From a virus, in the IMG/VR virus record IMGVR_UViG_3300018057_000010, positions 15,138 through 79,137 of that record: a stretch of 64,000 nucleotides of DNA; one strand, written 5' to 3'. The notes under the pieces are model-generated. The model saw only the letters and a program-made list of their open reading frames with translations, was not told the DNA's origin and did not search any database. Position numbers and translations under genes: made by a program. This document shows positions 28,987-64,000 of this stretch, in pieces (position 1 is the stretch's first letter; each line of letters opens with the position of its first letter).

Positions 28987-29311
28987 ACCTGCAACCATAC
29001 ATCGATGACATCGCTATGCCTGCAACGAAGAGACAATACCTGCAACTGTGGAATCCGATCCGTATCGAGCCATTTGCGAGACCTGCAACTCAACTATATG
29101 ACACGTGTATTTGCAATACCTGCAATATGACCCTGCTCTTCCCGCCTGCAACTTTCAGCGCCTTATCCAGTCTGCAACATAAGCCATTTGCCTGTAATAA
29201 CGTTCTGCGAATCTGCAACGTGGACCAGCTGACAATCACCTGCAACGAACACAGCCCAAGGAACAAACCTGCAACACTCGAATGGAACACATCCTCATTT
29301 CTACCTACAAC
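28987..29311 (-). CRISPR. Micro-array A: ~12 minimal repeats GTTGCAG(G/A) separated by ~11-35 nt unique sequence
   Basis: Exact CTGCAAC on + ending at 28995, 29026, 29046, 29089, 29152, 29178, 29219, 29246, 29275, plus 3 variants; identical to the CRISPR repeat 5' end. Confidence 0.6.
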
Positions 29312-29325
29312 CCTGCCCGCTACTG

Positions 29326-52420: not shown

Positions 52421-52749
52421 TCTGCAACTATTCCAGACATGCACCGGCCTGCAACACATGACGCTCACCTGCAACTCTGCTGTATACCACCGGTCTGCAA
52501 CACAAATATACGGCCACGTTAGTCTGCAGTTTTCATGAAGCCGGACCCGCAACAAATCATGATCTCCGAAACCTGCAAGAGAAGCTCTTCCGCCTGCAGC
52601 TTGATATTCTACTTCCGTAAAACCTGCAACACGGCGAGATCGACTGCATTCGCCTGTAACAACTATAGCCTTTTCATCTGCAACATCTATCGATGGAAGT
52701 TTAGCCGCATTTGCCTGCAACTGGAAAACTGACCATGCTCACCTGCAAC
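52416..52749 (-). CRISPR. Micro-array B: ~13 minimal repeats
   Basis: Exact CTGCAAC ending at 52428, 52455, 52475, 52501, 52630, 52684, 52721, 52749 plus 5 variants; the first keeps GCTAGTCTGCAAC of the full repeat. Confidence 0.6.
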
Positions 52750-52768
52750 TGGAAAACCGCCTACGAAA

Positions 52769-53408: not shown

Positions 53409-53528
53409 ACCTGCAACCTTGACTTAACTCTGACTTCGACTACATCCACCTGCAACTGGCACAAAACCTGCAACACCGAACATCGGCGGCAAAGCCTGCA
53501 ACATCTCTAGTTCCATGTATCCTGCAAC
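53409..53528 (-). CRISPR. Micro-array C: 5 minimal repeats in the vWA leader
   Basis: CCTGCAAC ending at 53417, 53456, 53474, 53502, 53528. Confidence 0.55.
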
Positions 53529-53569
53529 GGCGCCAGCACCGGTGCGATTCTGGCCTGAATTGATGCTGC

Positions 53570-54340: not shown

Positions 54341-54413
54341 GCTCGATAGCCGGATTCGAACCGGCGACCCTCACATTAGAAGTGTGATGCTCTACCAACT
54401 GAGCTAGATCGAA
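54341..54413 (-). tRNA. tRNA-Arg (anticodon TCT)
   Basis: D arm GCTC-AGTTGGTA-GAGC, anticodon arm TCACA-CTTCTAA-TGTGA, T arm GCCGG-TTCGAAT-CCGGC; one acceptor mismatch, no encoded CCA. Confidence 0.85.
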
Positions 54414-54415
54414 TT

Positions 54416-54588
54416 GTTTAGGAGCTTAACGTGCCTAGCCGACCGCCCGAGAACATTTGATCCTGATCACGCTGCTCTACCGCTAAGCTACGAGGCCATA
54501 ATTTTTATGGGGGCCTCGACCGGATTTGAACCGGCGACCGCGTTTTGGAATGTTCCCCGCTCCGGCATATCACAAACTCCCGACAAAC
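54416..54588 (-). ncRNA. Circularly permuted tRNA-like RNA (YrlA/Y-RNA-like)
   Basis: Order T arm, CGAGGCC-C-CCA, 10-nt linker, GGCCTCG, D arm; the anticodon stem extends into a long 5'/3' helix. Confidence 0.7.
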
Positions 54589-55760: not shown

Positions 55761-55884
55761 ACCTGCAACGCACAATTCAATCCTCACAACCGATAGCCTG
55801 CAACCCGTTCCGGACCGCGCCTTTGCAACTATCTACATCTTCGTCCCTGCAACCGTAATTATGCAATGTAATGCTCCTGCAACC
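55761..55884 (-). CRISPR. Micro-array D: 5-6 minimal repeats
   Basis: CCTGCAAC ending at 55769, 55804, 55853, 55884; TTGCAAC at 55829. Confidence 0.5.
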
Positions 55885-56029
55885 CATAACCCCTTGACTA
55901 TGTCCCGAAAAAGAAGCCGCCCGGTCGTGTACGAGCGGCTCGAAGTTATGCCTATTACTCAGTGAGTCTGTCTGAGAGTAGGTGCTCGTGAAACGACTAT
56001 AACGCAAATGCGAATCTTGACAAGAGCCG

Positions 56030-56593: not shown

Positions 56594-56869
56594 ACCTGCA
56601 ACCTTCTAATGACGACGAAACGGGAAAGTCCGATTATCGGACTCCCGCCTGCAACACACCACACGTTCCACCATAACCTGCAATCCGGTGATCGTACGCC
56701 TGCAACGAACACTCCCGTGCCTGCAACAGAGTCCAGCTCTTCTTCTTTTTAGCCCGCAACACCTCCACTTCCTTAATCCTGCAACATAGTCCAGTCTTTG
56801 TTGTTCTCAACCTGCAACATCTACCCTTATTTTCCTCTGCGACATTACTCATACCTCCAATTTCGCAAC
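56594..56869 (-). CRISPR. Micro-array E: ~8-10 minimal repeats
   Basis: CCTGCAAC ending at 56602, 56655, 56706, 56727, 56785, 56818 plus variants. Confidence 0.6.
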
Positions 56870-56898: not shown

Positions 56899-57405
56899 TC
56901 ATCTCGGCTGGGGACAATTATAGGCAATTGCATCGCGAAGTTTACTCAGATCGAAAACGCTGGTAGTCGGAGGCGCGACATATGCCGGGGTGTAACGGAT
57001 AGACACGGACCCGGAATCCAGTAATAAATTAATAAATTTCAGCCGTACCTTTTCGTTTCCTGGATAGGTGAAATGTTTTATATCGTTCACTGAATCCCAG
57101 AGGATCGATTGGCTGGCCCCGTTTATCGTCATATCGAATGTCGATGGCGCGGCTGAACTGTACTCGACGACAGCGCTTTGAGGAGAAAAAAGCAGTTTAT
57201 GTTCGACATTTTTCCCTTTTTTAGAGCAAGCAACTGCTAAATATGGCGATTTTTGTTCCCCAGTAAAAGAGCTATAGGGTTCTTGTGCGTTAACAGTAAG
57301 CATAACGATTCCCTCTGCCCGAGTCACATGTACTTCCTGACCGATACAGAGGCAAGAGGATAATACGATCAAGAATGCTGTAGGTAAATGCTTTCTCGTC
57401 CACAT
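56899..57405 (-). CDS. Secreted hypothetical protein (lower GC)
   Basis: Signal peptide MWTRKHLPTAFLIVLSSCLCIG; F(D)LSKL C-terminus. Confidence 0.6.
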   Translation of the reverse strand: MWTRKHLPTAFLIVLSSCLCIGQEVHVTRAEGIVMLTVNAQEPYSSFTGEQKSPYLAVACSKKGKNVEHKLLFSPQSAVVEYSSAAPSTFDMTINGASQSILWDSVNDIKHFTYPGNEKVRLKFINLLLDSGSVSIRYTPAYVAPPTTSVFDLSKLRDAIAYNCPQPR

Positions 57406-57426
57406 AGATAAAACCTTCCGTTCTTC

Positions 57427-57624
57427 ATAAAAACAGAGCGGCGTCCCGAAGGACGCCGTTCTCAGGTTGCGCACGCGCATTGCCTGTTCGTATAAAAATA
57501 TACATGTTGCCGGTAATGGAAATTCCGTCACATGTTGCAGGTTGACCGTTTTTGGCTTCTAACTCTTTCTTTATTCTTACAACGTACAATCCTGGCCGGT
57601 TGCAGGGTCGACCAAAACTCTACG
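57427..57624 (-). ncRNA. tracrRNA-like gene 2 (anti-repeat ACCGGCAAC, fits the minimal repeat GTTGCAGGT)
   Basis: 57431-57512 is 81/82 identical to 62440-62521; anti-repeat, then hairpins, cUUCGg stem and U tract; promoter upstream. Confidence 0.7.
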
Positions 57625-57630
57625 TTTCCG

Positions 57631-57659
57631 ATACTCCTTGAATCTATAATGTCTGTCAA
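57631..57659 (-). promoter_or_regulatory. Promoter of tracr-like 2, TTGACA-N17-GAGTAT, divergent from cas9
   Basis: Perfect -35; same position relative to the scaffold as the promoter at 62641-62669. Confidence 0.6.
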
Positions 57660-57717
57660 GCAAAAAATTTCGAATTATCTGAAACTACAAAGAAATGCTG
57701 TGCTACAACATTAGGTT

Positions 57718-60700
57718 ATGGTCGCCAAACATAAAGATTACGTTTTAGGGTTACAGATCAATGCGTCCTCTATCGGGTGGGCTGCTGTCCAGTTATCGGA
57801 CAAGGACGATAAGAATCCTGTCGCCTTGATGCACCCCGGCGTGCATCTCTTCGATCCCGGCGTCGAGGGTTCCTTGCTTGAAATCAAGCGAGGGAAGGAT
57901 ATCTCCCGCGCCGTCGCCTACCGTCAGGTAAAACAGTCGCAACGGATACGCGAGCGCCGCTTGGAGCGGGAAACCGAGCTCTTCGCCTTGCTGCAGATGC
58001 AGGGACTTTTGCCTGCCAGCACCAATGGCAGCCCCAAACAGCGTCTCGACACGTTGAATAATTTGGAGCGCGAGCTAGAAAAGGCTCTGGCGGATCGCCA
58101 TCCTCACAACAAGCTGCCCTATATCCTGCGCGCCGATGCCTTGGATCGCCGCCTCAAGCTCTTCGAGCTGGGCCGGATCTTCTATCACCTTGTGCAGCGT
58201 CGCGGATATCAGTCCAACCGGCGCAAACCGGAGAAAGAAGGCCAAGAGGGAGCCGTCAAGCAAGGGATCTCCGAACTCGCCCAGGAGATGCAGAAGCTGA
58301 AAGCTCGCACCTTAGGCGAATACTTCTCCAAAATCGATCCCCAAAAGGTGAAGATCCGCCGCCGCTGGACCTCGCGTCAGATGTATCTCGACGAATTCGA
58401 GCAGATCTGGACCAAACAGCACAAGTATTACCCAGACTTGCTAACCCCGCAGCTGAAAAGCCAGATTCACCGGCTGCTCTTCTTCCAGCGTCCGCTGGCC
58501 TCTGCAAAGCATCTCGTCGGCTTCTGCGAGTTCGAGCCTAAGCAACGCCGCGCTCCGATGTGCAGCATGGAGGCTCAGCGTTTCCGTATGCGGCAACGCA
58601 TCAACGATCTGCGTATTTGCCCCATCGGCCAAGCCGAAGGCTCTCCCTTGACCAAAGAGGAGAAAGAGGCCCTCTATCGGCTGCTGGAGGTCAATCCCCA
58701 GCTCACCTATACCGCCGTCAAAAAGCACTTCGGCTTCCCGAAATCCTCGGAGTTCAATTTCCAGCGCGCCGGAGAAAAACAGATCCTCGGAAATCGCACT
58801 TATGCCCACCATTACAAGGTCTTCGGCGATGCATGGCTCAAGATGACTCCCGAACAACAGGCGGAAACCATCAATATCTGGAATGCCGCCGAAACCGAAA
58901 AACAGCTCGTCACCGCTGGCATGCGCCACTATCTGTTAACCGAAGAGCAGGGAAAACTCTGGGCCAGCGAGTTGCCGGAATCGGGCTATTGTTCTCTGTC
59001 GAAGAAGGCGATCGCCCGCTTAATGCCTCACCTCAACGAAGGCATCGGCTACACTACGGCCGTCGAACGAGAGTACGGCGAGGGAGTACATTTCAAGCCG
59101 ATCCACGAAGAAATCCCTCCCGTTCGCGAGGTCTTCCGCGCTCTGGCGAATCCTGCCGTCGAACGCTCCCTTACGCAGACCCGCAAAATTGTCAACGCCC
59201 TGGTTCGCCGCTATGGCAAGCCGTATCGCATCCATATAGAACTCGGTAACGAACTGCGGCGCAGCCGGAAAGAACGTCAGAATATCCATATCGGCAATAA
59301 GCAGAGAGAGGCTAGCCGCGACAAGCTGCGCGAGCGCGTCAGCGAAGCTACCGGCATCGCCAAACAAAATGTCAGCGGATCGGATATCGAAAAAGTCCAA
59401 TTATGGGACGAGTGCGATGGCTTTTGCCCTTATACCGGCCACAAGATCCCCTTCGATGCTCTCTTTCGCGGCGACGACTGGATGGTGACCAATATCCTTC
59501 CCTTCAACCGCCATCCCGACAATTCCTTCTCGAATAAGACGCTCATCTACGCGCCGGAATTAGCCTCGGTCAAGCGTAACTTCACGCCCTATGAGGCCTA
59601 CGGGAAAAACGAAGACCTCTTCGACGACATCCTCCGCCGCGTCGATCTCTTCAAAGGCGACCTCGCCATCGAGAAATTGCATCGCTTCGAAGTCCGCTCC
59701 CGCGAAGACTTGGAGATCTACACGCAACGCGCCATGAACGACAATCGCTTCGCCACCAAGTGGGCCATGGAGTTAGTCGGCACGCTCTATGGTGGGCGCG
59801 ACGTTCTTCTCCCTCAAGGCGTAACGCGGCGTGCCGTTTGTGGGCGCCCTTCCGCATTGACAGCCTTGGTGCGCCGCAAGTGGGCGCTGAGTGACCTTTA
59901 CCGGGAACTCCCCGACGACTGGCGCGCCCAGACGCTCGATCCCATCGCTATCGCCTGCCTGGACGACGAGATCTTTCATCGCATGACTCGCTATAGCAAG
60001 GATTCGAATGCCATCGAATCCCCTTGGCCGGATTTTATTGACTCGATCCGCTCCCAAGTCGATAGCATCGTCCCTTCCATCCGGGTCGAGAAGAAGCTCA
60101 ACGGAGCCTTACACCAGGAGACGCATTACTCCAAGCCGGTGATCGACGAGCAGGGCCGCTCCTGGGTCACCGTCCGTAAGCCGGTCACGGCCATGAGCAA
60201 ACGCGATATCGAAGCTATCGTCTCCAAGCCCGTTCGGGAGGCTGTGTTGCGCCATTTCCTCGCGCTGGAAGAGGATCTCTCTACCTGCGCCGCTGCGAAT
60301 AACTGGCCGACGATCCAGGTCGGGAAAAGGCCTGCCGTCCCTATCCGGCGCGCCCGCATCCGGAAGGCTCTTACCGTCACCAAGGTAGGCAAAGAAGGCT
60401 TCGAGCGCTACGTCGCCAATGATCGCAATCACCACATGGAGGTCTTCGAAATCGACGATGCCAATGGTCCACGCTATGTCAGCCGCACCGTTTCCCTGCT
60501 GGAAGCAAAAACCCGCTGTAATCGAAAGCAGCCGGTGATCGACGAACGGTTGACTTCGCTCAACGGCGTCTCCGGCCGCCTGCCCAAAGGGGCCAAATAT
60601 AAGCATCTGTTTGTGTGCGCTCTTATGATCGGCGACTTAATCTTGTTACACCGCGATTGCGAGCACGAAAACGATGTCTGCATCCCAGGCATCTATCGCA

Positions 60701-60921
60701 TTCGCGGCATCGCGGCAAATGGACAAGTCACCGTCATGCCGCTCAATGAAACCCGGTCTGCTGTCGAACTCGACAAAGCCCATGAAGGGTGGTCCCCGAA
60801 AGTCGATGCCCTGCGCAAGATGGGCATGGCGCCGGTCAAGGTGGATTTACTTGGAGAACTCCATCCAAATGGTGGCAAGATCGATCTTTTCCAGCCTCGG
60901 AAGGTCGCTACTCACCAATAA
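57718..60921 (+). CDS. cas9: Type II-C-like Cas9, predicted nuclease-dead
   Basis: RuvC-I LGLQINASSIGWA, RRGYQSNR, LFFQRPL, NPAVERSL, RuvC-II IHIEL, HNH-region CPYTG...DNSFSNKTL, LNGALHQET; catalytic D, H, N and H positions substituted. Confidence 0.92.
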   Translation: MVAKHKDYVLGLQINASSIGWAAVQLSDKDDKNPVALMHPGVHLFDPGVEGSLLEIKRGKDISRAVAYRQVKQSQRIRERRLERETELFALLQMQGLLPASTNGSPKQRLDTLNNLERELEKALADRHPHNKLPYILRADALDRRLKLFELGRIFYHLVQRRGYQSNRRKPEKEGQEGAVKQGISELAQEMQKLKARTLGEYFSKIDPQKVKIRRRWTSRQMYLDEFEQIWTKQHKYYPDLLTPQLKSQIHRLLFFQRPLASAKHLVGFCEFEPKQRRAPMCSMEAQRFRMRQRINDLRICPIGQAEGSPLTKEEKEALYRLLEVNPQLTYTAVKKHFGFPKSSEFNFQRAGEKQILGNRTYAHHYKVFGDAWLKMTPEQQAETINIWNAAETEKQLVTAGMRHYLLTEEQGKLWASELPESGYCSLSKKAIARLMPHLNEGIGYTTAVEREYGEGVHFKPIHEEIPPVREVFRALANPAVERSLTQTRKIVNALVRRYGKPYRIHIELGNELRRSRKERQNIHIGNKQREASRDKLRERVSEATGIAKQNVSGSDIEKVQLWDECDGFCPYTGHKIPFDALFRGDDWMVTNILPFNRHPDNSFSNKTLIYAPELASVKRNFTPYEAYGKNEDLFDDILRRVDLFKGDLAIEKLHRFEVRSREDLEIYTQRAMNDNRFATKWAMELVGTLYGGRDVLLPQGVTRRAVCGRPSALTALVRRKWALSDLYRELPDDWRAQTLDPIAIACLDDEIFHRMTRYSKDSNAIESPWPDFIDSIRSQVDSIVPSIRVEKKLNGALHQETHYSKPVIDEQGRSWVTVRKPVTAMSKRDIEAIVSKPVREAVLRHFLALEEDLSTCAAANNWPTIQVGKRPAVPIRRARIRKALTVTKVGKEGFERYVANDRNHHMEVFEIDDANGPRYVSRTVSLLEAKTRCNRKQPVIDERLTSLNGVSGRLPKGAKYKHLFVCALMIGDLILLHRDCEHENDVCIPGIYRIRGIAANGQVTVMPLNETRSAVELDKAHEGWSPKVDALRKMGMAPVKVDLLGELHPNGGKIDLFQPRKVATHQ

Positions 60922-60944
60922 AATCAATGGGCTACAAGATTCCT

Positions 60945-61445
60945 CCTGTAGCCCTGCCTGCTTTCTCGGTAGTCTGCAACGATTAGATATGTTCATGCGA
61001 CAGGAACAAACCTGTAGCCCTGCCTGCTTTCTCGGTAGTCTGCAACTGTGCAAGCAAAGTTATATTAGGTTACGAACCTGTAGCCCTGCCTGCTTTCTCG
61101 GTAGTCTGCAACTGTGCAAGCAAAGTTATATTAGGTTACGAACCTGTAGCCCAGTCTGCTTTCTCGCTAATCTTGCAACGCCTCATTTCCCGTGCAACGC
61201 CCTATGGCTTGCCTGCTTTCCCAATAGTCTGCAACGCAAATTTATGCTTGCAATTCTTGCTGAGTCCTGTAGCCATGGCTTCTCGGTAGCCTGCAAACTC
61301 TACAAATGGCGCATTTCCTGTAGTCCTACTTCCTCTCGCTAGCCTGCTATTTCTGTTGGCATATCGTGATGTCAGTCTATTCTGTATCGCATGCTTACTT
61401 TCTCGCTGTCTGCAACACCAAATGACAATCATCATAGCCTGCAAC
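60945..61445 (-). CRISPR. Array 1: 36-nt repeat GTTGCAGACTACCGAGAAAGCAGGCAGGGCTACAGG, mostly 30-nt spacers
   Basis: Perfect repeats at 60945, 61011, 61077; degenerate at 61143, 61201, 61266, 61317, 61381 and a fragment to 61445; spacers 2 and 3 identical. Confidence 0.92.
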
Positions 61446-61479
61446 CGTTCTGCCTCTTTAGACCAAACGATGTTAACGT

Positions 61480-61515
61480 AAAACGGCCAATGTTTCCACT
61501 GGCCGTTTGTTTGTT
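61480..61515. terminator. Intrinsic terminator (probably bidirectional)
   Basis: aaacggcca...tggccgttt followed by gtttgtt. Confidence 0.6.
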
Positions 61516-61779
61516 ACACCGATTTGTCTAGTAGCTTCTGCTGTGTTTCTTTCGTTTTCCTATCTTGGTTGGCAGGCTGCGGTAGCTTTTCGATTCATGG
61601 GCGCGTTTTCTTGCTTCTCCTTTTGGGAGTTCGCCGCGTTTTTCCATGACGAAGAACTTCTTCCATTGCTTTTTGCTTTCAAATCCAGGCATTATTCCGC
61701 TCCTTTGGGTAGGGATACGGTTGCTACCGGGAGACAAAGCCTGGAGCGATAGGGAATCCGCCAAACGAGCAGTGACTTC

Positions 61780-62007
61780 TTAAACGCTGGCACTGGAAGC
61801 CTTCGGCGTCACGATAGCGGCCTTGGCCACGCCGATCTTGTCGAAGTTTGCGGCCAGGAAATGCACTGTGCCGTAAAACCACGCATAGAACTTACTGCCA
61901 TTGGCGGCGGGTTCCGGCATCGAACGCACCGATCCCGCACAAATCCAGTACAAAGCCACAGAAATCGCTGTTTGATGGGAAAGAATGAAATTCCAAATTG
62001 CTTGCAT
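61780..62007 (-). CDS. Small membrane protein (holin-like)
   Basis: Two hydrophobic segments; AGGGGAG RBS. Confidence 0.5.
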   Translation of the reverse strand: MQAIWNFILSHQTAISVALYWICAGSVRSMPEPAANGSKFYAWFYGTVHFLAANFDKIGVAKAAIVTPKASSASV

Positions 62008-62097
62008 TCGCGCTCCCCTCTTACGAGTGAAGAGGGGTGAAAGCGCGCTATGGATATTTAGCCCGATTTAGCCCGATTTTTCAATAGGAAAGCGCCT

Positions 62098-62412
62098 GCC
62101 TGCAACATCTACCAACCGAAGTCTGCAACCCGATCCATACCGCGTTCCACAATATCTATGCGTCTGCAACCCAGGATCATAAGTACGCCGCTCGTCTGCA
62201 ATACGGAATCAAAAAGCTACGCCTGCAACTCACTCTTACTCTAGCTCGGTAGTCTGCAACTAGAAACTGCACGGAAGAATACGTTTTGTCCCTGTAGCCC
62301 TGCCTGCTTTCTCGGTAGCCTGCAACCGTCATCAATAACGCACACTCGATTTATCCCTAGCCTGCAACGCGAATTATTTCCTGAGATGCCAAGCCGTTCT
62401 CTAGCCTGCAAT
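62098..62412 (-). CRISPR. Array F: one full 36-nt repeat among truncated and minimal repeats
   Basis: Full repeat 62291-62326, 16-nt repeat 62245-62260 with a 30-nt spacer, 12-nt forms at 62357 and 62401, 9-nt forms at 62098-62229. Confidence 0.75.
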
Positions 62413-62439
62413 CTCTACACCGACACTGTTCCCTCCTTC

Positions 62440-62634
62440 AAACAGAACGGCGTCCCGAAGGACGCCGTTCTCAGGTTGCGCACGCGCATTGCCTGTTCGT
62501 ATAAAAATATACATGTTGCCGACTAGCGAATAGCTTTACTCTTTTTGCAGACTGGCTTTCAGATCTCGTGTTTCCCTGAGACTCGCGGATAGATCCACTT
62601 TCCGTGCTCCCGGTTCGTGTTTGCAGACTAGCTG
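62440..62634 (-). ncRNA. tracrRNA-like gene 1 (anti-repeat TCGCTAGTCGGCAAC)
   Basis: 14/15 complementary to GTTGCAGACTAGCGA; followed by stem-loops and AGAACGGCGTCC-TTCG-GGACGCCGTTCT. Confidence 0.8.
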
Positions 62635-62640
62635 AGATTG

Positions 62641-62669
62641 ATAATCCCAAATCTTCGATTCCATGTCAA
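62641..62669 (-). promoter_or_regulatory. Promoter of tracr-like 1, TTGACA-N17-GATTAT
   Basis: Perfect -35; upstream direct repeat TTTTTTACACAGTTCGTT x2. Confidence 0.65.
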
Positions 62670-62777: not shown

Positions 62778-63353
62778 GTTGCAGCTTGGCTCGGGCACTG
62801 CTTCGATTGCAGACGCGAAGCTAACGGCGACGAGGCAGATGGTTGCAGATTGGCAAAAAGACAGGTTTAGCGGCCAGACTCAATTGCAGACTAGCGAGAA
62901 GGTGCAGTCTACGCGCTAAGAAATGCAAACCATTCCCGTTGCAGACTACCGAGAAGGCAGGATTACAGGAGTTTGATGGCGTGCCGGTATTGCAGGCTAG
63001 CAAGAAAGCAGGGCTACAGGATGTCAAGAACTTGGAATCCCGATCTCCAAGTTGCAGACTAACGAGAAGGCAGGCTGAGCTACAGGGGCGCGTGTATGTC
63101 AGATATGAGCCAATTTGTTGCAGACTACCGAGAAAGCGAGATGGGCTACAGGAAGCGAGCGGGAGGGTACCTCTGGCCGATAGTTGCAGACTACCGAGAA
63201 AGCAGGCTGGTTACAGGGAATTTCTTGAACCGGATTATCGCGATCTCGTTGCAGGCTAGCGAGAGAACAAGGCAGGGCCATAGGGACGTTGAGCGTGGTA
63301 TTACCACTGACGTAGCTGGTAGAACTTATTCGCTTCTTCCTCGTTGCAGAACC
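62778..63353 (+). CRISPR. Array G: same repeat family, opposite orientation, 30-nt spacers
   Basis: Repeats at 62938, 62989, 63051, 63117, 63183, 63248; degenerate copies at 62778-62915 and 63343. Confidence 0.85.
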
Positions 63354-63544
63354 ATCCATCTACGTCGTGAATCATGGTGGACTTATCTCGAACAGTTCCA
63401 CATAAAGTACACTTGTGTTTGCTGGAGAACCATTGCGGAAACAGAAATTCGAGCATTTTTTGCATGGCGAAGCTCTTTCTAAGTTGGATCGTGTTACCAC
63501 TCAGATAAAAATGATTCTTTTCTGGATGATTGTCAAGAGGATTA

Positions 63545-63994
63545 TCTCGCTAATCTGCAACGCTTCCGGACACTCAGGCTCACGTGAAGACCCGTGTTGC
63601 AACAAACCCATCGTCTCTCGCTAGTCTGCAACATGACAGATGGGCACTCAGACTCACTTCAGAGCAGGGTCGCAACAAACCCATCGCCTCTCGCTAGTCT
63701 GCAACATGACAGATGGGCACTCAGACTCACTTCAGAGCAGGGTCGCAACAAACCCATCGCCTCTCGCTAGTCTGCAACCCTGAACGCTGAGCGAGCCGAC
63801 CCAGCTGTCGAAGTTACAGCAAACCCATCATCTCTCGCTAGTCTGCAACCATTGGCAAGCTGGTAGAACTCGGCGGCAGCCCGTGGTTACAGCAAACCCA
63901 TCATCTCTCGCTAGCCTGCAACGCCGGATTCCTTTCGAAGCTTTCGACTCACATTGGGTTACAGCAAACCCATCATCTCTCGCTAGCCTGCAAC
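63545..63994 (-). CRISPR. Array H: 37-nt repeat GTTGCAGACTAGCGAGAGATGATGGGTTTGCTGTAAC, 34-36-nt spacers (may continue past the window)
   Basis: Repeats at 63596, 63669, 63742, 63813, 63886, 63958 and a partial one ending at 63561; one spacer duplicated. Confidence 0.92.
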
Positions 63995-64000
63995 ACATCG

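Follow-up and report, generated by a model that had tools for sequence, protein, structure and literature searches.

Two candidate tracrRNA gene copies with divergent anti-repeats flank a predicted catalytically dead phage Cas9

The window (the whole 64,000-nt stretch of DNA that was analyzed) contains an 82-nt direct repeat at 57431-57512 and 62440-62521, which we tentatively read, at somewhat less than an even chance, as the scaffold and terminator of two minus-strand tracrRNA gene copies feeding different partners to a single predicted dead Cas9 (dCas9). The copies are identical at 81 of 82 positions, and the element occurs only these two times in the whole 79-kb contig. Identity breaks off past position 7 of the anti-repeat, that is, past GTTGCCG on the plus strand, where the copy at 62.4 kb continues with ACTAGCGAA and the copy at 57.4 kb with GTAATGG (minus strand, CATTACCGGCAAC). 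A single base differs, G at 57438 versus A at 62447. Within the 57.4-kb copy, this base forms a G.U pair if the plus strand is read but an A.C mismatch if the minus strand is read, so that the minus-strand terminator stem is weakened there. A direct-repeat search and a check of the sequence thus bear out the first-pass annotation on the extent of identity, on divergence inside the anti-repeat, and on a G-U pair formed by the variant base only on the plus strand.

In both the minimum free energy (MFE) and the centroid structures of the minus strand, each copy presents an unpaired anti-repeat followed by three hairpins. The scaffold parts after the anti-repeat are a nexus-like AU hairpin, an AGG-CAA-[stem]-A-CCU element, and a terminator with a cUUCGg loop. 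The parts are as follows:

57428 to 57518, minus strand: candidate tracrRNA copy at the canonical position (MFE, -31.7 kcal/mol; z, -2.9)
57506 to 57518, minus strand: anti-repeat of the 57.4-kb copy, CAUUACCGGCAAC
57490 to 57503, minus strand: hairpin 1 of the 57.4-kb copy
57464 to 57486, minus strand: hairpin 2 of the 57.4-kb copy, with outer stem
57435 to 57462, minus strand: terminator hairpin of the 57.4-kb copy
57429 to 57434, minus strand: U tract of the 57.4-kb copy
62437 to 62530, minus strand: candidate tracrRNA copy with a 16-nt anti-repeat (MFE, -38.7 kcal/mol; z, -4.0)
62515 to 62530, minus strand: anti-repeat of the 62.4-kb copy, UUCGCUAGUCGGCAAC
62499 to 62512, minus strand: hairpin 1 of the 62.4-kb copy
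62473 to 62495, minus strand: hairpin 2 of the 62.4-kb copy
62444 to 62471, minus strand: terminator hairpin of the 62.4-kb copy, with a weak U tract, UUCUGUUUG

In the 57.4-kb copy, a terminator was called at 57458..57439, with the cUUCGg loop and the U tract on the minus strand. A search of Rfam returned no match for either copy.

Each copy is preceded on the same strand by its own sigma-70-type promoter motif and a leader of approximately 105 nt:

57519 to 57659, minus strand: promoter and leader of the 57.4-kb copy (-35 TTGACA, 57659-57654; -10 GAGTAT, 57636-57631)
62531 to 62669, minus strand: promoter and leader of the 62.4-kb copy (-35 TTGACA, 62669-62664; -10 GATTAT, 62646-62641, with TG)
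complement of 57599-57607 (CCCTGCAAC) and complement of 57534-57542 (ACCTGCAAC): anti-repeat-like boxes in the leader of the 57.4-kb copy
CTAGTCTGCAAA and CCAGTCTGCAA, minus strand: anti-repeat-like boxes in the leader of the 62.4-kb copy
57645 to 57650, plus strand: -10 box of cas9 (TATAAT), between the -35 and -10 hexamers of the 57.4-kb tracrRNA promoter

The TTGACA-N17-GATTAT motif at 62669..62641 on the minus strand was called as a strong promoter, reaching a score of 10/12 with its TG extension, and the GAGTAT box of the 57.4-kb copy matches TATAAT at three of six positions, below the scan threshold. The promoter boxes stand 140 and 141 nt from the core, and the -10 boxes 125 and 126 nt from the end of the anti-repeat; the TTGACA-N17-GA(T/G)TAT arrangement described earlier is therefore present at both copies, with one weak -10 box. 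Outside the boxes, the two leaders are near random relative to each other (global alignment score of -21 versus -31.8 ± 6.0 for shuffled sequences, with 22 of 500 shuffles as high). The leader boxes match the repeat class of their own copy in both cases.

The two copies flank a cas9 gene (57718 to 60921, plus strand; 1067 amino acids, type II-C-like), the product of which matches Pfam Cas9_a and HNH_4, has the Cas9 domain architecture with a REC lobe and an HNH domain inserted in RuvC, and aligns over its full length with homologs (E values down to 1e-223). Alignment with 13 homologs shows that the RuvC-I aspartate is replaced by Q13, the RuvC-III HH by QT, and the HNH histidine by asparagine (VTNILPF versus VEHIIPF in homologs), while the RuvC-II glutamate, the RuvC-III aspartate, and the HNH asparagine are kept. 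The RuvC_III Pfam match present in homologs is absent here. Because both nuclease domains are substituted, this Cas9 is predicted to be a binder and not a nuclease, in agreement with its earlier labeling as a dCas9. Neither cas1 nor cas2 was found in the examined part of the 79-kb phage-like contig, which originates from peat soil. The DNA is present in 24 sequencing runs, none of them listed as an RNA run.

The closest context for the two copies comes from the clade of type II-C Cas9 proteins of Planctomycetota, Acidobacteriota, and other environmental bacteria (loci L004 to L083), to which this Cas9 is 36 to 42% identical. At about 45 of about 50 related loci with arrays, a near-full-length anti-repeat closely precedes cas9 on the other strand, at a location that hardly varies and mostly falls 50 to 170 nt ahead of the cas9 start; hairpins and a U tract follow the anti-repeat. 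The 57.4-kb copy occupies this place: its anti-repeat, on the strand opposite to cas9, precedes the start of that gene by 200 nt. The place of the 62.4-kb copy is noncanonical; it is flanked by arrays B and C at 1.5 kb downstream of cas9, and arrays B and A lie directly downstream of it. The structure of the relatives' tracrRNAs is supported by covariation, with 93.9% of cells paired, compensatory changes at 12 of 13 pairs, and none of 500 shuffles as high. As judged by eye only, the order of modules is alike in the relatives and in the phage, with an anti-repeat, a 2- to 3-nt linker, a 5-bp hairpin with a U-rich tetraloop, an AGG-CAA-[stem]-N-CC element, and an intrinsic terminator; in both, too, arrays lie downstream of the cas genes, and the repeats, read on the strand of cas9, end in ...CAAC or ...CAGC. 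In the relatives, a single tracrRNA with an anti-repeat spanning ~36 nt accompanies an intact Cas9 and cas1-cas2, whereas the phage has two copies, with anti-repeats of 16 and 9 to 13 nt and an A.G mismatch fixed at position 6. In sequence, the phage copies have diverged beyond detection by covariance models of the relatives: two models (R2 and R3; 33 relatives), run over the window with filters off, gave no full-length match and only partial matches at the copies (E values of ~5 to 10). Taken together, the anti-repeats, the three hairpins, the terminator, the promoter distance, and the synteny with ~45 related loci support the identity of both copies as minus-strand tracrRNAs.

The window contains 75 occurrences of the motif GTTGCAG, whereas 8.2 ± 2.7 would be expected, and the repeats are organized in four arrays and several micro-arrays:

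60945 to 61445, minus strand: array A, repeats of 36 nt spaced at a period of 66 nt and decaying with distance from cas9; one spacer is present twice
62100 to 62418, minus strand: array B, on the strand of the 62.4-kb copy and immediately following it; one full 36-nt repeat among truncated repeats of 9 to 16 nt, with C at position 9 throughout
62778 to 63283, plus strand: array C, in the opposite orientation, with degenerate units that run leftward up to the 62.4-kb anti-repeat
63555 to 64000, minus strand: array D, period of 71 to 73 nt and repeats with a distinct 3' half, running off the contig end
56596-56849, 55763-55889, 53411-53534, and 52422-52755, minus strand: four micro-arrays lying between genes of the operon that the 57.4-kb copy heads
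28989-29317: a fifth micro-array

The micro-arrays repeat the unit GTTGCAGG(T/C) at a median period of 28 nt, which is not a multiple of 3 and thus fits a 19- to 20-nt guide and not a coding repeat. Conservation of the micro-repeats is confined to positions 1 to 8; at position 9, 21 units have T and 15 have C, and there is zero information beyond it. A target search with the phage spacers found no target.

The minus strand of the 62.4-kb copy, TTCGCTAGTCGGCAAC, is complementary to repeat positions 1 to 16, GTTGCAGACTAGCGAG, save position 6. At this position, both copies present a G, and the repeat base is A in 78 of 80 units, so the mismatch is common to the two copies, as the first-pass annotation had claimed. 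The 62.4-kb copy pairs at 15 of 16 positions with the repeats of array D, all but position 6, and at 14 of 16 with those of arrays A and C. With full repeats it reaches duplex energies of -16 to -23 kcal/mol, against -5.9 kcal/mol for the 57.4-kb copy, and 36 of 38 units favor it; the 62.4-kb copy is clearly the partner of the full repeats. The match of the 57.4-kb copy is limited to positions 1 to 9, sometimes to 11 (6 of 7 pairs with AC-type full repeats), which leaves AC-type full repeats unusable by it. With GTTGCAGGT micro-repeats it forms 8 of 9 pairs, its best targets reach about -9.5 to -14 kcal/mol, and its duplexes with 8- to 9-nt micro-repeats comprise only 8 to 10 bp. The 62.4-kb copy thus carries a tracrRNA anti-repeat, and the 57.4-kb copy carries one in reduced form.

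The first-pass annotation had proposed that the two anti-repeats co-vary with two repeat classes and had named cofolding as a check. This holds for the full repeats and for a GGT class of micro-repeats. GT at repeat positions 8 and 9 occurs in 19 of 42 micro-array units and in none of the 38 units beside the 62.4-kb copy (p = 4e-7), AC occurs in 3 of 42 and 19 of 38, respectively, and the 19 GGT-class units pair 3 to 6 kcal/mol better with the 57.4-kb copy. It does not hold for the micro-repeats as a whole, which are not one class: 20 of the 42 (the GGT class) favor the 57.4-kb copy, 15 favor the 62.4-kb copy, and 7 tie, with equal mean energies (-10.1 versus -10.2 kcal/mol). Moreover, the match of the 57.4-kb copy past position 7 amounts to two nucleotides, with a chance probability of 1/16, and a recombination chimera at the shared GTTGC motif would give the same pattern of co-variation without specialization.

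In the favored reading of two tracrRNA copies, each would be transcribed from its own promoter as a leader and an anti-repeat ahead of the scaffold and, since the scaffolds are identical, both RNAs should bind the same dCas9, leaving the annealing partner as their sole difference. The 62.4-kb copy would serve the full-length repeats through its 16-nt anti-repeat. The 57.4-kb copy, at the ancestral place and divergent from cas9, would form a short lower stem with the 8- to 9-nt micro-repeats of the GGT class, which lie between genes of the operon it presumably heads, and would yield guides of ~19 to 20 nt, like noncanonical crRNAs made from mRNAs. DNA would then be bound without being cut, and the targets would thereby be silenced. 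A stronger form of this proposal, possible but doubtful, is a two-channel programmable repressor, in which one dead Cas9 would be guided by one paralog from conventional arrays and by the other, aided by leader boxes at a 28-nt spacing, from micro-arrays that retain only the 8 to 9 repeat nucleotides contacting the tracrRNA and ~19- to 20-nt guides. For the two guide channels first suggested for one dCas9, the pairing with full repeats is strong and the GGT class is segregated, but the micro-repeats overall show no preference.

Several of these observations would also suit a locus in which only the 62.4-kb copy works as a tracrRNA and the 57.4-kb copy is a truncated by-product without a usable anti-repeat, an account that we consider unlikely but of appreciable weight. 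Here, the anti-repeat GTTGCCG would have recombined with a neighboring micro-repeat (GTTGCAGGT...), replacing everything past position 7; the 57.4-kb copy could be inert, a terminator or attenuator of the downstream operon, or a guideless competitor for dCas9, and micro-repeat RNAs, if used, would be served by the 62.4-kb copy via G.U pairs. Identity does stop exactly within a motif common to more than 100 repeat units, the next repeat unit is 28 nt away, the typical micro-array period, and the lack of micro-repeat information past position 9 and the equal mean energies point the same way. In addition, a single metagenome contig links 57438 to 62448 across the repeat, which could reflect either a chimeric assembly or genuine recombination between the two copies. 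However, promoter boxes at equal distance in an otherwise randomized leader and a scaffold conserved at 81 of 82 positions are unexpected of a dead copy, which moreover occupies the ancestral tracrRNA position and pairs better with the GGT class. A very improbable reading is a plus-strand function other than tracrRNA, for example as conserved hairpin modules that open mini-arrays on the plus strand, in which GTTGCCG... would be the initial degenerate repeat. Folding of the plus strand is as good as that of the minus strand (z, -3.7), the plus strand alone keeps the G.U pair at the variant base, and its repeat-like units follow both copies at 28 to 29 nt and 65 to 76 nt; yet it has no U tract past the hairpin and a CGAA instead of a UUCG loop, the conserved promoter boxes point the other way, and in the relatives the RNA encoded at this place runs opposite to cas9. 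Type II systems also need a tracrRNA, and the contig holds no other candidate. The promoters, the cUUCGg loop, the U tract, and the synteny uphold the earlier preference for the minus orientation.

Anti-CRISPR mimicry, in which the dead Cas9 and its tracrRNAs would capture host crRNAs and blunt host type II immunity instead of running guides for the phage, is improbable. Micro-repeats would then be RNA decoys for the host Cas9-tracrRNA complex, and the two anti-repeats would fit two host repeat variants. A phage II-C Cas9 with a dead RuvC and a host-repeat-matching tracrRNA has already been read in this way (PMC10910872; reviewed in PMC11656645), viral repeat-like RNAs are known inhibitors (PMC11656645), and the phage's own spacers have no target found. 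Against this, the phage has at least four arrays of its own with 30- to 36-nt spacers, whereas the published case has none, and its anti-repeats, much shorter than the ~36 nt of the relatives, should compete poorly with a host tracrRNA. A host array with this repeat was not found in 800 sampled genomes of two phyla, which is a weak negative.

If both RNAs load the dead Cas9, the locus would be a natural case of one Cas9 with two tracrRNAs that draw guides from different types of precursor, and ~8 to 9 repeat nucleotides would suffice once adaptation and cutting are abandoned. This would bear on the origin of tracrRNAs from repeats, on the reuse of CRISPR parts by phages for gene silencing or counter-defense, and on how compact multiplexed guide arrays and reprogrammed tracrRNAs could be designed. 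Should the 57.4-kb copy prove to be a mere recombination relic, the locus would still hold a fully dead, array-bearing phage Cas9, unlike the one published phage case. In the published system, a phage type II-C Cas9 with an inactivated RuvC domain, described as a "biomimicry anti-CRISPR" (Altae-Tran et al. 2023, PMC10910872), an active HNH domain is accompanied by an SNF2 neighbor and a tracrRNA perfectly matching the host repeat. Both phage systems combine a Cas9 with lost nuclease function, a phage tracrRNA, and the lack of adaptation genes. The present one nevertheless falls outside the biomimicry type: HNH, with its histidine lost, and RuvC are both substituted, four arrays and dispersed micro-arrays are present, the two tracrRNA copies have short anti-repeats, and no SNF2 gene was seen among the scanned proteins of this phage.

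Second tracrRNAs have been reported in some CRISPR-Cas9 loci (Dooley et al. 2020 preprint, 10.1101/2020.09.02.279885), and more than one tracrRNA candidate may thus occur per type II locus; near-identical scaffolds whose anti-repeats diverge in line with different repeat classes are not described in the available part of that preprint. Parallels for short guides are the noncanonical crRNAs that arise from mRNAs (Jiao et al. 2021, PMC8224270) and the natural guides scaRNA and tracr-L; short guides lead to binding or repression without cutting. Those RNAs are sporadic or single and work with one tracrRNA and an active Cas9, whereas the phage has ~42 units, ordered at a 28-nt period between the genes of an operon, and part of these units are matched by a second tracrRNA copy.

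The window contains an 82-nt direct repeat, at 57431-57512 and 62440-62521, whose two copies flank the phage cas9 gene and are identical at 81 of 82 positions; a BLAST search of the contig retrieved no third copy. On the plus strand, the identity stops past GTTGCCG, where the 62.4-kb copy continues with ACTAGCGAA and the 57.4-kb copy with GTAATGG. Read on the minus strand, these become the anti-repeats, UUCGCUAGUCGGCAAC in the 62.4-kb copy and CAUUACCGGCAAC in the 57.4-kb copy, with the same sequence 3' of each. Repeat search and flank comparison thereby confirmed the first-pass annotation, which had placed the divergence of two near-identical copies within the anti-repeat. Both copies fold on the minus strand into an AU hairpin of 5 bp with a UUUU loop, a CAGG-CAA-[UGCG CGUG CGCA]-A-CCUG element, and a GC stem of 8 to 12 bp with a cUUCGg closure, followed by a U tract. 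The elements around them are as follows.

57718-60921, plus strand: cas9, 1067 amino acids, with Pfam Cas9_a and HNH_4
57659-57654 (TTGACA) and 57636-57631 (GAGTAT), minus strand: promoter of the 57.4-kb copy, with a weak -10 box
62669..62641, minus strand: promoter of the 62.4-kb copy, TTGACA-17-GATTAT, 10/12, with a TG extension
56899-57408, minus strand: lipoprotein-like gene (…LIVLSSC…), starting at 57408, 20 nt past the U tract of the 57.4-kb copy
28989-29317, 52422-52755, 53411-53534, 55763-55889 and 56596-56849, strand of the flanking genes: micro-arrays, in which only GTTGCAGG(T/C) is conserved

A TTGACA-N17-GA(T/G)TAT promoter had been proposed for each copy, and both are present with the same spacing, the boxes lying 140 and 141 nt from the core. 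The leader sequences that separate promoter from anti-repeat are otherwise close to random, with a global alignment score of -21 against -31.8 ± 6.0 for shuffles, 22 of 500 of which score as high. Against this background, the boxes that are kept and the core, which is 99% identical, stand out as conserved islands. Viral contigs searched for the core of the copies and for the repeat gave no exact match to either. Across four peat or wetland runs, the contigs are near-identical, with zero differences inside either copy, and for this reason no covariation was gained from them. None of the 24 runs listed as containing this DNA was an RNA run. In one metagenome run, X17, a 267-nt contig joins window position 57438 to 62448, combining sequence to the left of the 57.4-kb copy with sequence to the right of the 62.4-kb copy. 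The 5009 nt absent from it hold cas9 and arrays A and B; the join reflects either chimeric assembly across the 82-nt repeat or a genuine deletion variant that retains a hybrid tracrRNA but lacks cas9.

Array B lies 28 nt beyond the 62.4-kb copy, with array A next, all three on the same strand, and read-through from the copy is plausible because its U tract is weak. The operon 3' of the 57.4-kb copy carries micro-arrays in four intergenic gaps. Its lipoprotein-like gene has a ribosome-binding site of its own, no promoter of its own was seen, and it may depend on read-through of the terminator of the 57.4-kb copy. The -10 box of cas9 (TATAAT, 57645-57650) falls between the -35 and -10 boxes of the 57.4-kb copy, making the two promoters divergent and overlapping. 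The micro-arrays have a median period of 28 nt (range, 18 to 53), and since the periods are not divisible by 3, a reading as coding repeats was ruled out. The gap between their repeats, about 19 to 20 nt, is of guide-like length. The micro-arrays retain roughly the parts of a mature crRNA: the 3' part of the spacer and the first bases of the repeat. Arrays A (61046/61112) and D (63632/63705) each contain a duplicated spacer-repeat unit, a pattern that agrees with recombination rather than with spacer acquisition; array D extends past the contig end. Spacers showed no self-matches in the contig beyond chance (seed suffixes of ≤11 nt) and no match of at least 14 nt outside the arrays, and the two spacers searched in viral contigs had no match. 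Small ORFs of 75 to 128 amino acids without Pfam matches lie between arrays, at 61528-62007 (minus strand) and 63096-63482, and could encode accessory or anti-defence proteins.

The nearest homologs of the window's Cas9 are 36 to 42% identical and come from Planctomycetota, Acidobacteriota and other environmental bacteria. The same or an at least 90% identical protein is also encoded on other contigs (P0002, P0041 and P0044). The metagenome contigs searched held no relative closer than 36% identity, the viral contigs searched held none, and phage records gave a single match, at 26% identity. In an alignment with 13 homologs, from which the catalytic residues were judged, the RuvC-I Asp is replaced by Gln (LGLQINASSIGWA), the HNH His by Asn (VTNILPF versus VEHIIPF), and the RuvC-III His-His by Gln-Thr (RAQTLDP versus RHHAIDA), while the RuvC-II Glu, RuvC-III Asp and HNH Asn are kept. 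Given these substitutions, the protein is predicted to bind DNA and not to cut it. Several near-invariant arginines of the bridge helix (residues 64 to 84 of P0001, the window's Cas9) are replaced by Y68, K72 and Q75, which may point to a change in how the protein contacts the guide or repeat duplex. P0009, a cellular homolog on a 133-kb contig, has Asn at the RuvC-I Asp (LGINLG) and keeps the HNH His, and partial inactivation may be recurrent in this clade. Neither cas1 nor cas2 was found among the ORFs scanned around cas9.

The virus record is single and 79,137 bp long, the window covering bases 15138-79137, and its sequence is present nearly unaltered in peat and wetland metagenomes. Products encoded in the window include a tail fibre, a DnaB-like helicase, a serine integrase, a RecT-like protein, a replication initiator and a DNA methyltransferase. 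The operon with the micro-arrays also contains, within 54341-54560 (minus strand), a tRNA-Arg(TCT) of 59 bits and, adjoining it, a YrlA-like (Y RNA-like) match that stays below threshold (34.7 bits, where the gathering score is 69; E = 1.8e-4).

Related Cas9 loci of environmental bacteria provide a reference for the two copies. About 45 of some 50 such loci with arrays carry a near-full-length anti-repeat just upstream of cas9 on the opposite strand, at a nearly constant position, mostly 50 to 170 nt ahead of the cas9 start. The 57.4-kb copy occupies exactly this site. On its 3' side, the relatives' anti-repeat has a short hairpin, then an AGG-CAA-[stem]-CC element and then a terminator, a structure that covariation supports. 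A MAFFT alignment of these tracrRNAs gave no structure in RNAalifold, and a hand-given structure with covariance-model-based realignment was used. In this alignment, which is partly fitted to the model except for the outer stem, 93.9% of cells are paired and 12 of 13 pairs changed on both sides; none of 500 shuffles reached this level, and slid controls had 31 to 46% paired. Covariance models built from the relatives (R1 to R3) detected neither window copy, and Rfam gave no match for either, which counts against a minus-strand tracrRNA, so the common module order is a resemblance by eye, with homology not demonstrated.

Folding energy was rejected as a criterion for the strand because it is equally good on both (z-scores of -3 to -4). 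Only the minus strand carries the terminator, with its U tract and UUCG loop, and the conserved promoter boxes of both copies point along this strand. A tracrRNA requires its anti-repeat 5' of its hairpins, an order found only on the minus strand, with the repeat reading GTTGCAG... in the crRNA sense. Terminator, promoter direction, anti-repeat order and the relatives' synteny agree in favouring the minus orientation, as the first-pass annotation had done. That annotation had also noted, correctly, that the single variant base keeps a G.U pair only on the plus strand; on the minus strand it gives an A.C mismatch in the stem of the 57.4-kb copy. This speaks for a plus-strand element, but it is one event and counts for little, and with the terminator confined to the other strand such an element is highly improbable. 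Both copies are probably minus-strand tracrRNA genes.

Repeat classes were compared over 80 repeat-like units gathered within the arrays with at most one mismatch to GTTGCAG. Repeat position 6, an A in 78 of the 80 units, faces a G in both copies, consistent with the common mismatch described before. At positions 8 and 9, arrays A to D, which lie beside the 62.4-kb copy (38 units), have AC 19 times, GC 11 times and GT never, whereas the five micro-arrays (42 units) have GT 19 times, GC 12 times and AC 3 times (Fisher's test, p = 4e-7 for GT and 3e-5 for AC). The anti-repeats are complementary to AC in the 62.4-kb copy and to GT in the 57.4-kb copy, and two additional anti-repeat-like boxes in each leader are of the same class as that copy's anti-repeat. 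In duplex-energy calculations, the full repeats pair at -16 to -23 kcal/mol with the 62.4-kb copy and at -5.9 kcal/mol with the 57.4-kb copy, 36 of 38 preferring the former. The micro-repeats, conserved at positions 1 to 8, with T or C at position 9 and no information from 10 onward, do not separate the copies on average (means of -10.1 for the 62.4-kb copy versus -10.2 kcal/mol); 20 prefer the 57.4-kb copy, 15 the 62.4-kb copy and 7 are tied, with GGT-class units favouring the 57.4-kb copy by 3 to 6 kcal/mol. The proposed co-variation of two anti-repeats with two repeat classes thus stands for the full repeats and the segregation of GT, and fails for the micro-repeats as a single matched class. 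As judged from these pairings, the partition is one-sided: the 57.4-kb copy is barred from full repeats and is the best fit for about half of the micro-repeats, which do not form a class dedicated to it.

For the proposal that tracrRNA duplication and specialisation give one dCas9 two guide channels, the exclusion of the 57.4-kb copy from full repeats is favourable and the lack of dedicated micro-repeats is not. That the copies serve different guide precursors is the best explanation, but it is tentative even in this partial sense, with chances a little short of even, and transcription, loading and repression are steps that we infer. The 57.4-kb copy could instead be a truncated relic or a regulator. 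Its class match past the shared 7 nt amounts to two nucleotides, and the identity breaks inside a motif found more than 100 times nearby, so a recombination join with a micro-array unit would yield the same sequence without selection; the distance to the next repeat unit, 28 nt, equals the median period of the micro-arrays. Set beside these points are its position at the relatives' tracrRNA site and its retained promoter boxes, and we regard a relic or regulator as rather unlikely.

Mimicry of host RNAs is less credible still, and we consider it quite unlikely. It has a precedent in a phage Cas9 whose RuvC is dead and whose HNH is active, and which comes without an array but with a tracrRNA that matches the host repeat perfectly; this Cas9 was interpreted as an anti-CRISPR acting by mimicry (PMC10910872, PMC11656645). 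A host search with the repeat pattern in 400 + 400 sampled genomes from two relatives' phyla returned no arrays and single chance-level matches only. Second tracrRNAs in a CRISPR-Cas9 locus have been mentioned in an earlier study (10.1101/2020.09.02.279885). A limited literature search brought up no account of paralogs that combine identical scaffolds with class-matched anti-repeats, and phrases such as "natural dCas9" likewise returned nothing in it. Compared with the published phage Cas9 (PMC10910872), in which RuvC is dead and HNH active, the window's Cas9 is substituted in both nuclease domains; and whereas that protein is accompanied by no array, the module described here has its own arrays and micro-arrays, two tracrRNA copies, and short anti-repeats.
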